Positions 46,109-54,680 of a DNA stretch of 64,000 bases are shown piece after piece. A model generated the notes under the pieces. The model ran no database searches and was not told where the DNA came from. It saw only the letters and a program-made list of their open reading frames with translations. Origin of the DNA: Cyanobacteria bacterium P01_F01_bin.150. GTDB lineage: Bacteria; Cyanobacteriota; Cyanobacteriia; CAKZMO01. Each line of letters begins with the position of its first letter. The first letter of the stretch is position 1. The stretch covers positions 1 to 64,000 of the forward strand of contig JBCCYL010000008.1 in assembly GCA_039189765.1 (NCBI GenBank). The letters run 5' to 3'. Made by a program: the position numbers and the translations under genes.

Positions 46109-48811
46109 CTATTGGACATGGGCAACGGTAACACCACTGCCACCATCTGCCTTATCCGCAGGTTCAAAGCGAGACACTTGGGGATGTTGCTTCAGAAAGG
46201 CTTGGACACCTTTGCGCAACTTACCCGTACCATGTCCATGAATAATCCATAATGGCCCTCCAAGGGAAGAGGCGATCGCCCGATCGATCTCAATCTCCGC
46301 ATCTGCGACTCGACTCCCCCTCAAGTCCAAAGTATTACGAGAGGTACGCACGGCGGGCTGACTTGGCTGAGATTCAGGCACAGCTACTTTTTTCTCAGGG
46401 GTCATTTTAGACGCTTTTTCTTTCTCAGGTACCACCGCTTTAATACCCTGCAACGACTCTACATCTTCCAGTGCTACAGTCATTTTCATTAGGCCAAATC
46501 GCACCGACATTTCCCCATCGGCATCGGGCAGAGTCAACACCTCCGCCACCTGATCAATGCGAGGAATCCGGACGCGATCGCCGACCTTAGGCTCATAGCC
46601 CACTTTCTTTTTCTTCTTCGCCTCCATCTTCCGTTTCTGACGTTCGGCGATTCTATCCAAATCATTAGTTGCCTTATGAGCATCCTGGGCAGTCGTGGTA
46701 CCTTGCTGGAGAGTCCGAATCACCTTAGCAATTTCCCCTTTCGCTTGAGAAATAGCATTTTGAACTTCTTTATCCTGCTGCCGTTGGAGAGCTTTTTCAC
46801 GCTTTTTCAGTAAGTTCGCTTTGCGCAAGACCTCATCATGGAGCTGTTCCGCCTGACGCACCAAAACATTGGCCTCCTGTGCCTTCTGTTCCTGTTCCCG
46901 ACGCTGCTCCTCTAATCCGGCAATAACTTCGTTGACATCCTCATTAGACTGCAAACCCACCTGTTGACGAGCCTGGGCAATCACGCTTTCATTTAGCCCC
47001 AACCGACCAGCAATCGATAGTGCGTTGGAGCGCCCTGGAATTCCCCACAATAAACGATAGGTTGGGGACATACTGACATCATCAAATTCTACCGACGCAT
47101 TTTCAAATCGTTCATCCTGATACTTGAGAGATTTCAGCTCACCAAAGTGGGTAGTGGCAATGGAGAGATACGCATGGTCAGCAAGATGTTGGAGAAGGGC
47201 GATCGCCAATGCGCTACCTTCAGTTGGGTCAGTACCCGCACCAACCTCATCGAGAAGAACAAGGGATTTTGGATTTTGGATTTTGGATTTTAGACCTTGG
47301 AGGGTTGTGGAGTTGGAGGGTTGTGGAGTTAAAGAGTTAGCATTTTCCAATAGCTCCTCTGCTCCCCTGCTCCCCTGCTCCCCTGCTCCTCTGCTCCCCT
47401 GCTCCTCCGCTCCCCTGCTCCCCTGCTCCTCTGCTCCTCCGCTTCCTCGCTCCTCTACTCCCCCGCTCCCCTGCTCAGCATCGGGGTCAAGCTCATGCAG
47501 TAACTCAGCCAACTGTTCGTCTTCATCGGCAGGCTTTTCAGCAGAGGATTCGAGAGGCGACGGTTCAAGAGGCTGGAGGGCATCGAGGATGCGACTAATG
47601 CGGCGAATATGCCCAGAAAAAGTCGAAAGGCTTTGCTGAAGAGACTGTTCGTCTCCAATATCTGCTAACACTTGATCAAACCAGGGTAGCTCTACCGGCT
47701 CACGGGCGGGAATAAACAGACCCACTTTGGCCATAAGCGCAGTAATACCCAACGTTTTTAAGGTGACGGTTTTGCCGCCAGTGTTGGGTCCAGTAATCGC
47801 CACTACACGAATCTGAGGCTGAATATTAACATCAATGGGAACGACCTCTGGCCCCTCTTCGTGATGTTGCAGCCATACGAGAAGAGGATGTCGCAATTGT
47901 CGGAGCACCACTCGCTCATTGTCAGACCGTTCTATAAAACGCGGAGGATTGGCCTCTAGCCACAGACTGTAACGAGCACGGGCTGAAGCAAGATCAAGGG
48001 TAGTGCAAATCACCAACAAGCGCTCAATATCCGGAATAACTTCAGCGACTTTTTCAGTAAGCACGGAGCGAATTTTCTCTTCCTGGGCCTGCTCCTGTCG
48101 TAATGCTTGGCGTAGCTGATTACCTAAAGAAATAACCGCTTGAGGCTCCACGTAAAGAGTTGCACCACTGGCGGAGGCATCATGAACAACACCAGGAATC
48201 TTATCTTTTTGAGGCGCTTTAATGGGTAGCACAAAGCGATCGCCCCGCTGAGTCATCACCATTTCTTGCATAGCGCCGCTATGGCGCTGCATAATGCGCT
48301 GAAGACTGGTGCGGATGCGATCGCGCACCTCTTTAACTTTTTGTCGAATTCCACTCAGTTGCGGATTCGCTCGGTCAGTAACTTTGCCCTGATCGTCAAT
48401 ACAGCGATGAATCTCTTTTTCTAGTTCAGGATAAGTCCGTAACTGTGTAACTAGCGATTGGAGTACGGGTACATCTTCTTGGGCATCAATCGTGCGCCGT
48501 AGGCTCCGGGCAGCGGCAAAAGTCGTTGCCACATTCAAGAGCTGATCACCCGATAAAATACCTTTGCGCTCTGCCCGCTCCAGTGGCTCCCAAATATCCT
48601 CCAATCCATCAAACTTAAGTCCCGTTACCAAGGTGGTCTCTAGATAGTACATTTCCTTGGTTTGGATTAAGAGCGATTCACTCTCTGCTTTCGTGGAAGG
48701 AATGACTAGGCGCTGAGCCGCCATCATCCCTAACTTCGTCGCAGCAAACGTGGAAAGCTGCTGACAGAGACGGGACCATTCAAGTAGTTCAAGAGTTTCA
48801 GATTGAATCAA
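46109..48811 (-). CDS. mutS2: Endonuclease MutS2 with in-frame repeat insertion
   Basis: TGPNTGGKT, IGDEQSLQQSLSTFSGH, LLDEVGAGTDP, C-terminal Smr domain (LDLRG..IIHGHGTG). Confidence 0.97.
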   Translation of the reverse strand: MIQSETLELLEWSRLCQQLSTFAATKLGMMAAQRLVIPSTKAESESLLIQTKEMYYLETTLVTGLKFDGLEDIWEPLERAERKGILSGDQLLNVATTFAAARSLRRTIDAQEDVPVLQSLVTQLRTYPELEKEIHRCIDDQGKVTDRANPQLSGIRQKVKEVRDRIRTSLQRIMQRHSGAMQEMVMTQRGDRFVLPIKAPQKDKIPGVVHDASASGATLYVEPQAVISLGNQLRQALRQEQAQEEKIRSVLTEKVAEVIPDIERLLVICTTLDLASARARYSLWLEANPPRFIERSDNERVVLRQLRHPLLVWLQHHEEGPEVVPIDVNIQPQIRVVAITGPNTGGKTVTLKTLGITALMAKVGLFIPAREPVELPWFDQVLADIGDEQSLQQSLSTFSGHIRRISRILDALQPLEPSPLESSAEKPADEDEQLAELLHELDPDAEQGSGGVEERGSGGAEEQGSRGAEEQGSRGAGEQGSRGAEELLENANSLTPQPSNSTTLQGLKSKIQNPKSLVLLDEVGAGTDPTEGSALAIALLQHLADHAYLSIATTHFGELKSLKYQDERFENASVEFDDVSMSPTYRLLWGIPGRSNALSIAGRLGLNESVIAQARQQVGLQSNEDVNEVIAGLEEQRREQEQKAQEANVLVRQAEQLHDEVLRKANLLKKREKALQRQQDKEVQNAISQAKGEIAKVIRTLQQGTTTAQDAHKATNDLDRIAERQKRKMEAKKKKKVGYEPKVGDRVRIPRIDQVAEVLTLPDADGEMSVRFGLMKMTVALEDVESLQGIKAVVPEKEKASKMTPEKKVAVPESQPSQPAVRTSRNTLDLRGSRVADAEIEIDRAIASSLGGPLWIIHGHGTGKLRKGVQAFLKQHPQVSRFEPADKADGGSGVTVAHVQ
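47264..47476. repeat. Composite short tandem repeats (STRR-like) inside mutS2
   Basis: GGATTTT x4 (47264-47291), a GGAGGGTTGTGGAGTT duplication, and about 15 GCTCC(C/T)C(T/C) octamers (47353-47476). Confidence 0.9.
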
Positions 48812-50399: not shown

Positions 50400-51605
50400 A
50401 TGATTTCAATTCAACGTGCCGCCTCTTCCAATACATTTCGTAATACTATCCAAGATATTCTTAACCAGGCAGACATTGAAATTAACGGCGATCGCCCGTG
50501 GGATATTCAAGTACATGACGAGCATTTTTTTAGACGTCTGCTTGCAGAGGGATCTATGGCGGCTGGGGAAGCTTATATGGACGGATGGTGGGATTGTCAA
50601 CAGCTCGATGAATTCTTTGCTAAACTACTGCGCTGTAAGTTAGAAGATGCCTTTAAACATTGGACAATTGTACAAATTATTCAAGCAAAGCTGCTTAATT
50701 TTCAGTCTATTTATCGAGCATTTACGGTGGGAAAACGGCACTATGATTTAGGAAACGATCTGTATACCGCAATGCTGGACGATCATCTTATTTATAGCTG
50801 CGGCTATTGGCAGAATGTCGATACCTTAGAAGCAGCTCAGTTAGCTAAGCTGGATCTAATTGCCCGTAAGCTGGATTTACAGCCTGGCATGAGAGTCATG
50901 GACATCGGCTGTGGTTGGGGCAGCACCGCTAAGTATTTAGCCCAAACCTATGGAGTCAGCGTTATTGGCATTACCGTGTCGGAAGAACAGGCCGTTTATG
51001 CCAGAAAACTTTGTGAGGGGTTGCCCGTTGAAATTCGTCTTCAGGATTATCGAGAAATGGGTCGAGATATGAAACAAGGACGAGAGAATAAATGCGATCG
51101 CATTCTTTCCGTGGGTATGTTCGAGCATGTAGGCTACAAAAACTATCGCACTTTTTTTGAATGCGTTACCTCCTGTCTCAAGCAAGATGGCCGCTTCTTA
51201 CTCCACACTATCGGCACCAATATTTTGACAGTACGCACCGATCCTTGGATCGAACGATATATTTTTCCTAACTCCATGGTCCCCTGTGAACAATATGTAG
51301 CATCAGCCTTTAATGGATTGATGGTGCTGGAAGATTGGCATAATTTTGGACCAGACTATGACAAAACACTAATGGCATGGCACCACAATTTTCATCAGGC
51401 ATGGTCTAGCCTAAAAGAGCAATATGGCGATCGCTTTTCATCCAGTAAGCAGGATCGTCTACATGATAGTTCTGTACGTTTTTACAGAATGTGGACCTAC
51501 TATCTGCTGAGCTGTGCCGGGTCATTTCGCGCCCGCAAAAATCACGTTTGGCAACTGTTATTGACACCCCATGGTATTCCAGGAGGATATACCGTTGCTC
51601 GCTAA
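50400..51605 (+). CDS. cfa: Cyclopropane-fatty-acyl-phospholipid synthase
   Basis: INGDRPWDIQVH, GEAYMDGWW, HYDLGNDLY, YSCGYW, DIGCGWG, SVGMFEHVG, YYLLSCAGSFRAR. Confidence 0.95.
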   Translation: MISIQRAASSNTFRNTIQDILNQADIEINGDRPWDIQVHDEHFFRRLLAEGSMAAGEAYMDGWWDCQQLDEFFAKLLRCKLEDAFKHWTIVQIIQAKLLNFQSIYRAFTVGKRHYDLGNDLYTAMLDDHLIYSCGYWQNVDTLEAAQLAKLDLIARKLDLQPGMRVMDIGCGWGSTAKYLAQTYGVSVIGITVSEEQAVYARKLCEGLPVEIRLQDYREMGRDMKQGRENKCDRILSVGMFEHVGYKNYRTFFECVTSCLKQDGRFLLHTIGTNILTVRTDPWIERYIFPNSMVPCEQYVASAFNGLMVLEDWHNFGPDYDKTLMAWHHNFHQAWSSLKEQYGDRFSSSKQDRLHDSSVRFYRMWTYYLLSCAGSFRARKNHVWQLLLTPHGIPGGYTVAR

Positions 51606-51613
51606 ATCAATGA

Positions 51614-51640
51614 GGGGAAAATCTCTGCGAGATTTTCCCC
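51614..51640. terminator. Hairpin between convergent cfa and mcdB
   Basis: GGGGAAAATCTC-tgc-GAGATTTTCCCC perfect stem. Confidence 0.7.
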
Positions 51641-51661
51641 CAAAATAAAGCTGACGCGTTA

Positions 51662-53362
51662 CTAGTCGTACCATCCCATTTCTGAACTAGATCCGTTTTG
51701 GCCATCTTTAGAGCCTGGTTTCATCGAAGCCCTCCGCACTTTTTTATATTTAGGCGTCAAGAAACGACCTTCTTTCTTAGCCATAGGAGTAGTAGAATTT
51801 GTGCGAGCCAACTGAGAGGTGGAGTTCGTCTCTGCATCAGAGAGCTGTTGAATTTGGGTTTTAGCTTTCGCCAATTCAGCTTTTACCTTCTCCGTCTGTT
51901 TCACCTCTTTCTTCAGAGTTTGAACTGAAGCCTTTTCTTTCTTCAAATCGGCTTGGAGAGCAGCAATCTTTTTTTGTAAGACTTGCTCTTTACCAGTATT
52001 TGTATCTGCCAACTTGAGGATAGTTTTCTTTGCGTCCGTCAACTCAGCGGTGAGTTTATCAACCTTTTTCACCTCTTTCTTTAATTTCTGCACCTCAGCT
52101 TTTTCTTGCTTTAAGCGAGTTTCTAAATCAGTCACTTTTTTCTGACCAGCTTGAGCAGAACCGTTGGAACCCTGTTTGAGTTGCGACTGCAAACGGGTAA
52201 TTTGTTTTTGTAAGGCTCCTTCTGCCTTACGCGCAAGCTGTAATTCCGCTTTCGCATCTTCCAACATGACTTCTATTTGAGCCTTAGTCGGTGGCCGTTT
52301 ACGTTGTGCCGCTGGTTTACTAGCAGTTGTTGCGGCTTTAGTAGAAGTTTTAGCAGGTGATGTAGATTTAGACGTACTCGACTTAGATGTACTCTTGGGT
52401 GCAGATGATGTGGGTTTTGAGGTTACTTTACTGTTGCCATTGCTGGCTGCTTTCGACGTCTTAGTAGCTGATTGGTTTCCCGGTGTCTTAGCAGAGGTGG
52501 AGCTTTTAGCCGTTGTAGACTTAATAGTTGATTTACTACCAGGTTTTGATGCCGTAGTATTTGCTGGTGAAGATTTTTGATTAGCAGGCTTAGCCACAGT
52601 TTTCGACGCTGTGGCTTTAGTTGAAGCCGATGTGGGCGCAGCCTTCGATTTTGTCGCTGCTTTAGACGGTGTTGTTTTAGATGCTGACGTTTTAGATGCT
52701 GATGCTTTTGGCGTTGTTTTAGTGGATGCAGTCTTAGCTTTAGATGCTGATGCTTTTGTTGCTGTTGGAGTGGATGTAGCCTTAGACTTAGACACTGATG
52801 CAGTCTTAGCTTTAGACGCTGATGCTTTTGTTGCTGCTTGAGTGGATGTAGCCTTAGACTTAGACACTGATGCAGTCTTGGCTTTAGACGCTGGTGCTTT
52901 TGTTGCTGTTTGAGTGGATGCAGCCTTAGCTTTAGATGTTGCGGCTTTAGCTACAGACTGAGATGTAGTGGACGCCGCTTTAGATGCTGATGCCTTTGCC
53001 GCGCTAGATTTGGGGGTCGATTTAGGCGTTGCTTTAGGGGTTTTAGCTTTACTTGTTGTCGATTTAGCGGTCGTTTTAGCCTCGGTTTTCGACGCTGGCT
53101 TAACTGTCGATTTCGCAGTCAAGGATTTTGATGGTGACGATTTCTTCGTGGCAGTAGACGTCGTTTTAGCCTTACTATCAGTCGATGCTGTAGATGCTTT
53201 TGATGTAGATTTACGGGTTGTTGTTTTACTGCCTGTCGATTTACGAGCGGCTGTTTTATTAGCTGTAGATTTACTTGTCATCTTATTACCTGTAGACGCT
53301 ACGTCAGTAGCAGCCTTACCAGCTTCTTCTTTTAATAGATCTGCAATTCGTTTTTTAGCCAT
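51662..53362 (-). CDS. mcdB: McdB-like carboxysome positioning protein with very long Lys/Ala/Ser/Thr-rich region (566 aa)
   Basis: ATG overlaps the ParA/McdA stop (TAATG); N-terminal MAKKRIADLLKEE, coiled coil and terminal ...MGWYD tryptophan, as described for type 2 McdB. Confidence 0.72.
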   Translation of the reverse strand: MAKKRIADLLKEEAGKAATDVASTGNKMTSKSTANKTAARKSTGSKTTTRKSTSKASTASTDSKAKTTSTATKKSSPSKSLTAKSTVKPASKTEAKTTAKSTTSKAKTPKATPKSTPKSSAAKASASKAASTTSQSVAKAATSKAKAASTQTATKAPASKAKTASVSKSKATSTQAATKASASKAKTASVSKSKATSTPTATKASASKAKTASTKTTPKASASKTSASKTTPSKAATKSKAAPTSASTKATASKTVAKPANQKSSPANTTASKPGSKSTIKSTTAKSSTSAKTPGNQSATKTSKAASNGNSKVTSKPTSSAPKSTSKSSTSKSTSPAKTSTKAATTASKPAAQRKRPPTKAQIEVMLEDAKAELQLARKAEGALQKQITRLQSQLKQGSNGSAQAGQKKVTDLETRLKQEKAEVQKLKKEVKKVDKLTAELTDAKKTILKLADTNTGKEQVLQKKIAALQADLKKEKASVQTLKKEVKQTEKVKAELAKAKTQIQQLSDAETNSTSQLARTNSTTPMAKKEGRFLTPKYKKVRRASMKPGSKDGQNGSSSEMGWYD

Positions 53363-54003
53363 TAGTTCCTCCAATCCTGCTGTATTTCATCTGCTATTGA
53401 TCGATAATCCGACTGCGCGGCTCTTCCATGTCGTCCTTTCCACTGTGTAATGGCCACTCCTTGGAGTGCTGCCTGTTCATGAGCTTTATAGGCGCGAATA
53501 AAGGTGCTGCAAACTGGAATAGCCAATGATTCAAGAGTGTCTTGGGCTTCCACTGCAATATTTGAACTACGAGGATCAACCCGAGTCAGCAATACTCGAT
53601 AGGATACTTTTGTCGGCTTTACCGTTTTTTTTACTGTTTCTATCAACGCTGCTAAATCCATCGGGGCTGGAGGGGTTGGCAAAATAAGATAGTCAGATAA
53701 AGGTACCAGATCTTTCAAGGTTTTAGAATCAAGATGGGGAGGAGTATCAATCACTATTACCCCATATTTCCCATTTTTTTTCAGTTGCTTTAGCTTTCTC
53801 GGATTTGTTTCTTGGCTCAGATCAAACCCCATGCCAGCTTCGTTTCTTCCAGCCCACCAAGTAGCAGACCCCTGGGGGTCTGCATCCACTAAGAGAACAG
53901 GACAGGTTTCCGATAATACGGCAGCCAGGTTGACCGCTGTCGTTGTTTTACCAACGCCGCCTTTTCCATTTAATATCCCCAAAATTTTCATTGTGTGGGA
54001 CAT
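53362..54003 (-). CDS. mcdA: Short ParA-family ATPase, McdA type 2-like
   Basis: KGGVGKTT with signature Lys, DADPQGSATWW (double Trp), IDTPP; no adjacent parB; coupled to a coiled-coil partner ending in a Trp motif. Confidence 0.75.
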   Translation of the reverse strand: MSHTMKILGILNGKGGVGKTTTAVNLAAVLSETCPVLLVDADPQGSATWWAGRNEAGMGFDLSQETNPRKLKQLKKNGKYGVIVIDTPPHLDSKTLKDLVPLSDYLILPTPPAPMDLAALIETVKKTVKPTKVSYRVLLTRVDPRSSNIAVEAQDTLESLAIPVCSTFIRAYKAHEQAALQGVAITQWKGRHGRAAQSDYRSIADEIQQDWRN

Positions 54004-54308
54004 AAGCGTAAAAAATATCTCCTCAAGAAAGATGGAATCGTCAGCATGTTTATAATGTTGCGTCTAAATATGCTGATGTTTGATGCAATGAATTATCTTG
54101 ACGCTTTAAAGATAACGCTAACATTCAAATATAAGCTAAATGTGTACTGTTGAGGGCTGTTTCACTGATTGTTACGTTACTTCACCATTTTATAGTGTAT
54201 TTACCAAATTAAAAATTGAGTTGAGAAGAATTTCATTGAACACTGGGATATTTCGAGCCTCAGAATCTTGCATTAAAAGATAATCATTTTTATCTAAGAT
54301 CAATATCT

Positions 54309-54389
54309 AGGTATCAACTTTAAGCGGAGAGTGTGGGTGCGTCGCGTCCACACTCTCCTTACTTTTGTTTCGTCTTAAAACGAAACCCA
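54309..54389 (+). repeat. ~80-bp nested-hairpin dispersed repeat, subtype A
   Basis: GGTATCAACTTTAAGC-[GGAGAGTGTGG..CCACACTCTCC]-TTACTTTTGTTTCGTCTTAAAACGAAACCC. Confidence 0.8.
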
Positions 54390-54467
54390 AATACCTGATG
54401 ATTCATGACTCTAATGGTAGACAAGAACATCTTCAAGAAATAGCTTTTCTGATTCCTGATGATTTTA

Positions 54468-54545
54468 AGATTAAAATTTACAGTTGTGAACCATCTAACA
54501 AGTATTGGGTTGCACACCCCAGTATCTAGCCTTAAAATACAAGCC
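54468..54545 (+). repeat. ~80-bp nested-hairpin dispersed repeat, subtype B (degenerate)
   Basis: GATTAAAATTTACAGTTGTGAA..AAC-[TATTGGG..CCCAGTA]-..GCCTTAAAATACAAGCC. Confidence 0.65.
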
Positions 54546-54566
54546 AAATTAATCAGGTGAACTTAC

Positions 54567-54646
54567 TGGGTGTCAACTTAAGGAGGGAAATAGGGGCGTG
54601 ACGCCCCTATTTTCTATAGACTTGTTTCTCTTGACGTTGAAACCCG
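54567..54646 (+). repeat. ~80-bp nested-hairpin dispersed repeat, subtype A
   Basis: GGGTGTCAACTTAAGG-[AAATAGGGGCGT g ACGCCCCTATTT]-..ACTTGTTTCTCTTGACGTTGAAACCC. Confidence 0.82.
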
Positions 54647-54680
54647 AGTGTAACTTAACTTAGGCGAATGGGATAAAAGC

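Follow-up and report, generated by a model that had tools for sequence, protein, structure and literature searches.

In the carboxysome-positioning systems described so far, the ATP-bound form of the ATPase McdA binds DNA non-specifically, and its partner McdB binds carboxysome shell proteins and stimulates both the McdA ATPase and release from DNA (PMC6328274). McdB's association with carboxysomes requires its invariant C-terminal tryptophan (PMC11321042), and partners of ParA-family ATPases usually act through basic N-terminal residues (PMC10554743). How soluble the condensates of Synechococcus elongatus PCC 7942 McdB are depends on the net charge of its disordered region, and changing three charges there switches condensates on or off (PMC10554743). 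Type 2 McdAs are separated from Type 1 by a Walker A lysine, a double tryptophan and a conserved phenylalanine (PMC7182216). Here we describe a mcdA-mcdB pair from Cyanobacteria bacterium P01_F01_bin.150, located within the first 64,000 nucleotides (positions 1-64000, the window) of the 137-kb contig JBCCYL010000008.1 (contig C8) of a 10.6 Mb, 350-contig genome assembly. It is likely a Type 2 McdAB pair in which a linker within McdB has grown in place to giant size and would act as a long cationic tether, the role of the linker being what we infer.

The first gene of the pair encodes a ParA-family ATPase with the Walker A sequence KGGVGKT and the double tryptophan of SATWW, which the initial annotation had read as a short ParA of the McdA kind coupled to a 566-aa partner. 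The protein matches the Pfam families CbiA and AAA_31 above their cut-offs, while its score with NCBIfam ParA_partition (126 bits) lies under the cut-off of 180. Single-copy orthologues with 55-71% identity occur in 26 of 61 genomes (its own, counted among the 26, and 60 relatives); the window protein can be aligned over its full length with orthologues of 205-231 aa, lacks the long stretch that Type 1 McdAs have between Walker A' and B, and falls within the 202-253 aa of Type 2 McdAs. In an alignment of 19 sequences it keeps all 63 invariant columns, including K14, W49, W50 and F60; K14 and G15-T20 of the Walker A motif are identical in 19/19 sequences, and E65 is at least 90% conserved. A hidden Markov model (HMM) built from 18 orthologues, with the window sequence excluded, scores the window protein at 362.5 bits and the next best open reading frames (ORFs) of the same genome at 112.9 and 83.1 bits. 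By this score and by the Walker A lysine, double tryptophan and phenylalanine that it retains, the ParA groups with McdA as the initial annotation had supposed. A quick tree of the orthologues with the P-loop paralogues of the same genome gave no resolution, being distorted by long, poorly covered rows.

The two lower-scoring ParAs of this genome differ from McdA in setting. The one at 112.9 bits (C22:16605-17237; 32% identical) has the sequence KGGISKT and precedes a 381-aa partner in a plasmid-like or mobile context, and the one at 83.1 bits (C28:30239-30763; 36% identical) contains an internal TAA stop and has no partner on its strand. Among the relatives, the McdA orthologue of genome G023 (G023:C1:1449684-1450309; loci L038 and L039) is split over two frames covering residues 4-112 and 110-212, and is a frameshifted or broken gene.

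The second gene is encoded directly after mcdA, as in Type 2 systems. The TAA stop of mcdA and the ATG of mcdB (53362) share one base, TAATG, and a ribosome-binding-like sequence lies just upstream (Table 1), which bears out the coupling proposed in the initial annotation. The mcdB ORF is listed as 51662..53374 on the minus strand, 570 aa when counted from a TTG; from the ATG it is 566 aa, and residue numbers below refer to the 566-aa form unless 570-aa numbering is named. Translation from the ATG confirms the previously noted termini, a start of MAKKRIADLLKEE and an end of GWYD, and both align with those of other McdBs. In an alignment with 15 orthologues the protein has the common N-terminal motif, the KRKRxPTKA anchor and the GW[VFY]D end; K4, E13, L441 and W564 are invariant, W564 being found in 16/16 sequences and G563 and D566 in at least 90%. 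The window anchor RKRPPTKAQIE lines up with KRKRSPTKADLE in the orthologues from the genus and also with the consensus PTKADLE.

Table 1. Features of the mcdA-mcdB locus in window coordinates; residue numbers are those of the 566-aa McdB.
Feature	Position	Strand	Basis
mcdA, Type 2 McdA, ParA-family ATPase, 213 aa	53362..54003, stop codon included	(-)	ORF list, Pfam, HMM, alignment
mcdB, McdA-coupled Type 2 McdB, 566 aa	51662..53362, stop codon included	(-)	ORF, orthologue alignment, AlphaFold2
Shine-Dalgarno-like GGAGGA within mcdA end, four bases 5' of mcdB ATG	53367..53372	(-)	direct sequence reading
N-terminal basic helix, residues 1-20, MAKKRIADLLKEE	53303..53362	(-)	family motif, AlphaFold2 helix
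Polycationic disordered K/S/T/A/P linker, residues 21-358	52289..53302	(-)	composition, AlphaFold2
72-bp (24-codon) tandem repeat in linker, 2.9 copies, 93% identity	52725..52936	(-)	Tandem Repeats Finder
Anchor RKRPPTKAQIE, residues 354-364, just before coiled coil	52271..52303	(-)	orthologue alignment
Central coiled coil, residues 360-505, internal duplication of ~53 aa	51848..52285	(-)	AlphaFold2, periodicity
C-terminal disordered region, residues 506-566, ending GWYD; W564 at 51671-51673	51665..51847	(-)	alignment
Terminator-like hairpin, 13-bp stem, 21 bases past mcdB stop	51613..51641	(-)	terminator scan

The same partner architecture recurs after McdA in other genomes. The motif M[AT][KR]K[RQ]L.DLL[KR]EE was found in partners at loci of relatives, at loci from a wider set of genomes and at metagenome loci. 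Of the 20 loci in relatives, 16 have a complete ORF following the ATPase, with the N-terminal motif and a tryptophan in the last 4-5 residues, mostly as [IL]GW[VFM]D; of the other four, one runs off its contig, one lacks the tryptophan and two show no partner beside the ATPase. When one genome per species was scanned with an McdA alignment, 80 loci were returned, and the same scan with a single McdA sequence returned none. The loci retrieved included those of Fischerella PCC 9431, Nostoc NIES-4103, Tolypothrix PCC 7101 and Leptolyngbya JSC-1, with partners ending in WLLD, WLYD, WLLD and WID. These ends agree with supplementary Table 1 of PMC7182216 in all four strains checked, so the pair is orthologous to the published McdAB loci and, judged by sequence, is a true Type 2 McdAB. 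The genome also encodes the expected cargo: a ccmK-L-M-N-O operon lies on contig C169, where CcmL, CcmM, CcmN and CcmO score above their NCBIfam cut-offs and the ccmK ORF matches shell-protein models below cut-offs only.

AlphaFold2, run on McdB with a 16-row alignment, predicted two helices and no other secondary structure. The first spans residues 3-15 with a predicted local distance difference test score (pLDDT) of ~75 and is followed by residues 16-359 without structure (pLDDT 40-49); the second is one long helix over residues 360-505 (pLDDT 70-91), after which residues 506-566 again have no structure. The pLDDT is below 50 in 330/566 residues. In the long helix L, I, V and M recur with the 3.5-residue heptad periodicity of a coiled coil (z 9.45, reached by 0/2000 shuffles), and its internal duplication scores 127 against a shuffle mean of 42 (standard deviation 7, maximum 81). 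Glutamine makes up 19 of 155 coiled-coil residues (12%) and lysine 19%; Type 2 McdBs are described as having a glutamine-rich stretch within the coiled coil, a term for which PMC7182216 sets no threshold. At E up to 0.01 the sole Pfam match of McdB is to the coiled-coil family ATG16, at 17.3 bits and below its cut-off of 33.7, and no ParB, HTH or RHH domain was found with Pfam or NCBIfam. By analogy with ParA partner proteins (PMC7182216, PMC10554743) the N-terminal helix would be the peptide that contacts McdA and stimulates its ATPase, and the GWYD end the putative carboxysome-binding end (PMC11321042). A complex prediction with two McdA chains and McdB residues 1-40, made with no control runs, scored 0.00 and 0.00 against a mark of 0.32, which speaks neither for nor against contact.

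The feature that sets this McdB apart is the linker between the N-terminal helix and the coiled coil. The initial annotation had described about 340 aa of K/A/S/T/P sequence with nearly no acidic or aromatic residues, and this is what is found: over the 338 residues from 21 to 358 there are 67 K, 77 S, 70 T, 70 A and 20 P, together 90%, with two acidic residues (0.6%), no aromatic residue and 3% hydrophobic or other residues. The linker carries a net charge of ~+66 (+68, again with no aromatic residue, over residues 25-375 in 570-aa numbering) and the whole protein +89. The whole 10.6 Mb was scanned in six frames for 100-aa windows in which K/S/T/A/P made up at least 80%, K/R numbered 14 or more and D/E no more than 4; the McdB ORF was the sole match. 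The earlier description of the segment as histone-H1-like stands for its charge and disorder; it does not stand for composition, with K at only ~20% and S+T at 42%, or for family, since no histone, linker-histone, bacterial H1-like or nucleoid-protein match was found in Pfam at E up to 0.01. A protein atlas search with residues 21-358 gave no usable match.

The linker has grown where it stands. Within the genus, two complete orthologues, of 260 and 261 aa, have a slightly acidic linker of ~40 aa; conserved anchors flank the linker, so the extra sequence represents an in-place expansion of an existing linker. Fusion with a separate nucleoid-protein gene was considered as its source and ruled out, the anchors keeping the order seen in orthologues and shorter segments of like kind lying at the same place in other McdBs. 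Outside the 72-bp repeat the linker is pervaded by more degenerate repeats with units of 24, 30 and 48 bases, which together with that repeat point to repeated slippage, and because the 72-bp unit is 24 codons the reading frame is kept at any copy number. On this pattern of repeats, the linker has grown through rounds of tandem duplication, of which the 72-bp unit is the youngest. Outside the young repeat K, S, T, A and P are each encoded by all of their synonymous codons, in a mix resembling that found elsewhere in the operon. Codons one base away from those of the linker would yield hydrophobic residues at 17.5%, acidic ones at 5.5% and stops at 4.1%; the linker has 3%, 0.6% and none. We read this deficit as constraint on linker composition, an argument and not a test.

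Sequencing runs from the same study bear on whether the linker is real. Contigs of run X1, made with a different assembler, are identical to the window over 51500-52797 and 52850-54100; the run is probably the source sample, hence not independent. The contigs break solely inside the 72-bp repeat, where a 40-base unitig has a depth of 100 compared with ~40 on either side. Run X2 contains a relative ~90% identical in mcdA at a depth of 2.5-4, with no cover over the linker region, and run X3 contains no sequence matching the locus.

No other McdA-coupled McdB read from DNA approaches the length of the window protein. Partners read in this way, and hence independently of gene calls, measured 171-314 aa at relatives' loci (16/20 complete), 179-326 aa with a median of 206 at genome loci identified by the motif (62/80), 184 to at most 325 aa at 12 of 14 genome loci missed by the motif and read by eye (the other two having no adjacent partner), and 139-299 aa at metagenome loci (39/80). 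The remaining 41 metagenome loci comprise 21 with no motif match, 14 with closed partners lacking the tryptophan (111-404 aa), three that are open-ended and three without McdA. The genome and relatives' sets overlap, being drawn partly from the same genomes. In all, ~150 McdA-coupled McdBs were read from DNA, and they span 139-328 aa, none above 328 aa, against 566 aa here. Equally long tails are thus not normal in related McdA-coupled McdBs, a condition that the initial annotation had named as one that would refute its reading. A profile search of 1.84 billion representative proteins gave 747 matches, of which the best 150 are 155-368 aa long; forms with long inserts would rank low in this list. 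Among 401 genomes of the class (this one and 400 others), 265 had a profile match, and the 150 best lie in open frames of 175-365 aa. A word-based search among proteins of 551-2000 aa, which is weak evidence, gave no McdB and only two generic coiled-coil proteins; in another with residues 340-570 among lengths of 313-998 aa, 0/4891 candidates scored.

Under one fixed criterion the basic acid-free K/A/S/T segment is 346 aa long in the window protein and at most 173 aa in any other protein compared. Of 260 other members of the McdB family, 84 have such segments of at least 30 aa. The net charges of the other proteins compared lie between -27 and +48 around a median of -6, against +89 for the window McdB. 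In these comparisons the window linker, about twice the next case, is the longest and most cationic found, and reads as the extreme of a recurring trend. The initial annotation's view of an unusual variant thus holds for length and charge, with the caveat that shorter basic K/A/S/T linkers recur in other McdBs and the form is no new invention.

Databases may conceal more proteins of this kind. A word-based search with a McdB alignment (A1), in which low-complexity words crowded the candidates, gave nine matches in all. Seven database proteins (P0151-P0157) are 61-71% identical to the C-terminal 201 aa of McdB, and all begin at the equivalent of its M366. No methionine occurs in the linker from residue 28 up to M366, and after a contig break in the repeats a gene caller dependent on an ATG would begin at exactly that residue. 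The seven are probably truncated gene calls of long-linker McdBs, and protein databases would under-report the long form. A short isoform translated from the internal M366 was rejected, as no convincing ribosome-binding site precedes that ATG. A metagenome scan with a C-terminal alignment (A3) found nothing, and one with the McdA alignment (A2) found no McdA closer than 65% identity to that of the window.

Several points weigh against a giant tether in a carboxysome-positioning pair. The long linker is seen in one assembly, probably from one sample, and the 2.9 copies of its 72-bp repeat rest on that assembly and are not independently confirmed. P0151-P0157 are recorded only as gene calls of 201-209 aa from the equivalent of M366, a start that would leave out any linker. 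At 20% lysine the linker has half the density of histone H1 tails. Shell genes of bacterial microcompartments lie on contigs C169, C23 and C15 and none on C8, so that the pair adjoins no carboxysome gene. Lastly, the disordered regions of McdBs are hypervariable and have been described as being under relaxed selection (PMC7182216), which makes neutral expansion of the linker a live alternative.

That alternative accepts the genes as mcdA and mcdB and takes the giant linker as a product of replication slippage with no role beyond that of a 40-aa linker. The near-identity of the 72-bp copies bespeaks recent slippage, the more degenerate repeat families extend through the segment, McdB lengths and disordered regions vary widely and are taken to be under relaxed selection (PMC7182216), basic K/A/S/T segments are common enough in the family to furnish raw material, and the long form comes from a single assembly. 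We nevertheless regard it as unlikely, because the codons outside the young repeat are mixed as in the operon and still stops and acidic or hydrophobic residues fall 6- to 9-fold short of what the single-base neighbours of the codons would give, the net charge lies far outside the range of the other members, and in the one McdB tested three charges altered behaviour, which makes a silent linker of +66 improbable (PMC10554743). A second possibility is that the pair positions something other than carboxysomes (a plasmid, the chromosome or a different granule, for example), its likeness to McdAB being superficial. Contig C8 has no carboxysome gene, McdB-like partners of plasmid ParAs are on record as 'not true McdB' (PMC7182216), and the best NCBIfam model is the generic ParA_partition, below cut-off; carboxysome-gene clustering of McdAB, however, occurs in only ~31% of McdAB genomes (PMC7182216). 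This explanation is very improbable given the orthology and conserved gene order shared with the published loci of four named strains, the chromosomal neighbours, the invariant C-terminal Trp-acidic motif, the assignment of the plasmid-like ParA to a different gene on contig C22 with its 381-aa partner, and a partner without ParB, HTH or RHH domains. That the long ORF is an assembly artefact or decaying gene whose real product is the 201-aa C-terminal part is less credible still: the seven 201-209-aa records and the break of the other assembler's contigs inside the repeat would suit it, but the contigs on either side of the break match the window exactly and the repeat unit is whole codons, a single frame of 1.7 kb free of stops takes in the N-terminal motif, linker and C-terminal half, the TAATG overlap and the GGAGGA upstream tie the start to mcdA, the lack of methionine between residues 28 and 366 explains a gene-caller start at M366, and no strong ribosome-binding site stands before the internal ATG.

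The preferred reading, a Type 2 pair with a long cationic tether, can be put as a sequence of steps, the first four by orthology with the described systems. ATP-bound McdA dimers would coat the nucleoid. McdB would sit on beta-carboxysomes through its C-terminal GWYD end and an oligomer formed by the coiled coil, its N-terminal basic helix (MAKKRIADLLKEE) would stimulate the McdA ATPase, and the carboxysomes would then move up the McdA gradient and space themselves by a Brownian ratchet. The linker, having grown in place by tandem duplication from the ~40 aa of the same-genus relatives to ~340 aa, would serve as a tether on which the McdA-stimulating helix reaches farther out from the carboxysome, to ~18 nm from 5 nm end to end by a rough estimate from generic polymer scaling. 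It probably also lets McdB bind polyanions (nucleoid DNA, RNA or polyphosphate, for example) weakly and without specificity, and probably shifts the self-association of McdB, since three charges switch condensates in the Synechococcus elongatus protein.

A further proposal gives the linker a larger part: as McdB's own nucleoid- or polyphosphate-binding activity, it would form a charged brush that tethers carboxysomes directly to DNA. This appears doubtful on present evidence. If true, McdA would act on a DNA-bound partner, as ParA does on ParB-parS, and the linker would represent a convergent, sequence-independent 'ParB-like' adaptor state that has arisen at least twice, in the window and in the Acaryochloris-type McdBs described below, possibly in cyanobacteria with very large genomes.

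Of the two positioning components, McdB is the less well understood. The S. elongatus protein is the only dissected case, and its three-charge change also alters carboxysome association. The window mcdB amounts to a natural construct at the far end of this axis, with ~340 residues and ~+66 between the putative McdA-contacting helix and the coiled coil, and the same-genus orthologues with a 40-aa linker provide built-in controls. A comparison of long and short linkers could show effects on nucleoid reach, direct DNA tethering or condensate behaviour. The case also illustrates how gene callers truncate such genes, leaving long McdBs under-reported in protein databases.

The surroundings of the pair are chromosomal. 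The gene downstream of mcdB, in convergent orientation, belongs to the cyclopropane-fatty-acid-synthase family and another neighbour to the alpha-amylase family (both confirmed by Pfam), and RodA/FtsW-like and MutS2-like ORFs were named from their sequence. The hairpin 3' of mcdB (51604-51667) is one copy of a dispersed palindromic repeat whose core occurs 59 times in the genome, ~5.5 per Mb; it has a depth of 1150 in run X1 compared with ~40 around it, and the element is common to many X1 and X2 contigs. The intergenic region upstream of mcdA, of 680 bp (54004-54680), contains a perfect GC-rich hairpin with a 15-bp stem at 54326-54358 and one promoter-like site on the mcdA strand, at 54490-54462. 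The MutS2-like ORF (900 aa, 46109-48811, minus strand) carries an internal tandem insert of Gly/Glu-rich units, GSGGVEERGSGGAEEQGSRGAEEQGSRGAGEQGSRGAEE, so that a second conserved gene of the genome shows an in-frame expansion of repeats.

The genome also encodes an orphan McdB-like protein of 577 aa (C18:25624-27357, plus strand; locus L287:4624-6357) with the coiled-coil motif ELDEAKRYILQL and the end SDAEIGWFD. Its first 100 residues are basic (+16), the next 150 strongly acidic (-39) and its tail rich in Pro and Ser; no ParA lies nearby and no Pfam family matches above cut-off. Orthologues of 342-604 aa (L288-L295) were present in 8/8 genomes of the same family that were checked, beside a methionine-aminopeptidase-like gene named by eye, and none of these eight loci had a match to the McdA HMM. 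These lengths exceed the published McdB range of 132-394 aa (PMC7182216). CipG, a carboxysome-surface protein dependent on a tryptophan, was ruled out as the identity of the orphan, as it is a pentapeptide-repeat protein (PMC13506006). With E values up to 1e-30, the McdA orthologue occurs in 3/3 same-genus genomes and in 0/13 genomes (G004-G016) from the family's four other genera, and the orphan gene in 13/13 of the latter. This pattern suggests either loss of the McdA-coupled pair with the orphan retained or a much more divergent McdA. By their sequences, long McdB-like proteins are not unique within the family; the McdA-coupled cationic form is.

At eight metagenome loci (L163, L187, L189, L192, L193, L198, L202 and L203) the McdA-like ATPases are 55-59% identical and their partners lack the terminal tryptophan. 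Seven of these partners are 114-161 aa long and start with VKRKRLAELVREE, and that of L198 is 404 aa. They may be adaptors for another cargo.

Among nucleoid proteins, long Lys-rich tails are found in the C-terminal domain of histone H1, in bacterial Hc1, in AlgP and in mycobacterial HupB. The linker resembles these in being long, disordered, polycationic, nearly acid-free and of low complexity with short repeats; it differs in having no family match and roughly half the charge density, and in being part of an organelle adaptor instead of a protein that binds DNA. The orphan McdB-like proteins, a type listed in Table 1 of PMC7182216, resemble the window McdB in a coiled coil (with ELxEAKxxILQL), long disordered flanks and a C-terminal end of SD.EIGWFD; they differ from it in having no adjacent McdA, no MAKKRLxDLLREE, acidic or Pro/Ser-rich extensions and no cationic linker.

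The Type 1 McdB of Synechococcus elongatus PCC 7942 is likewise an adaptor that binds shell proteins, stimulates McdA and forms condensates (PMC6328274, PMC10554743), in which basic residues of the N-terminal disordered region tune condensate solubility and the C-terminal tryptophan is invariant (PMC10554743, PMC11321042). It differs in domain order, its coiled coil not being central, in a McdA without the signature lysine, and in having six basic residues in the disordered region compared with ~71 in the window McdB. With the Type 2 McdAB of beta-cyanobacteria (MacCready, Basalla and Vecchiarelli 2020, PMC7182216) the window pair shares the McdA Walker A lysine, double tryptophan and phenylalanine, the mcdA-mcdB order and, in McdB, the charged N-terminal motif, central coiled coil, disorder and a tryptophan in the last four residues. 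The published McdBs are 132-394 aa long with an N-terminal extension of 60 +/- 23 aa, whereas the window protein has 566 aa and an extension of ~360 aa.

The nearest counterparts to the linker are the Acaryochloris-type McdBs, two of which (L250 and L251, both from large genomes) were found by searching the family of locus L090; Table 1 of PMC7182216 gives the end WCYD for mcdB AM1_0553 of A. marina MBIC11017. As in the window protein, a basic, acid-free, disordered K/A/S/T stretch lies between the N-terminal motif and the coiled coil. The Acaryochloris-type proteins differ in their length of 328 and 326 aa, basic segments of 173 and 168 aa, net charge of +48 and end of TWCYD. Their McdAs are 55-56% identical to that of the window; the lineages are therefore far apart, and the two linker expansions were probably independent.

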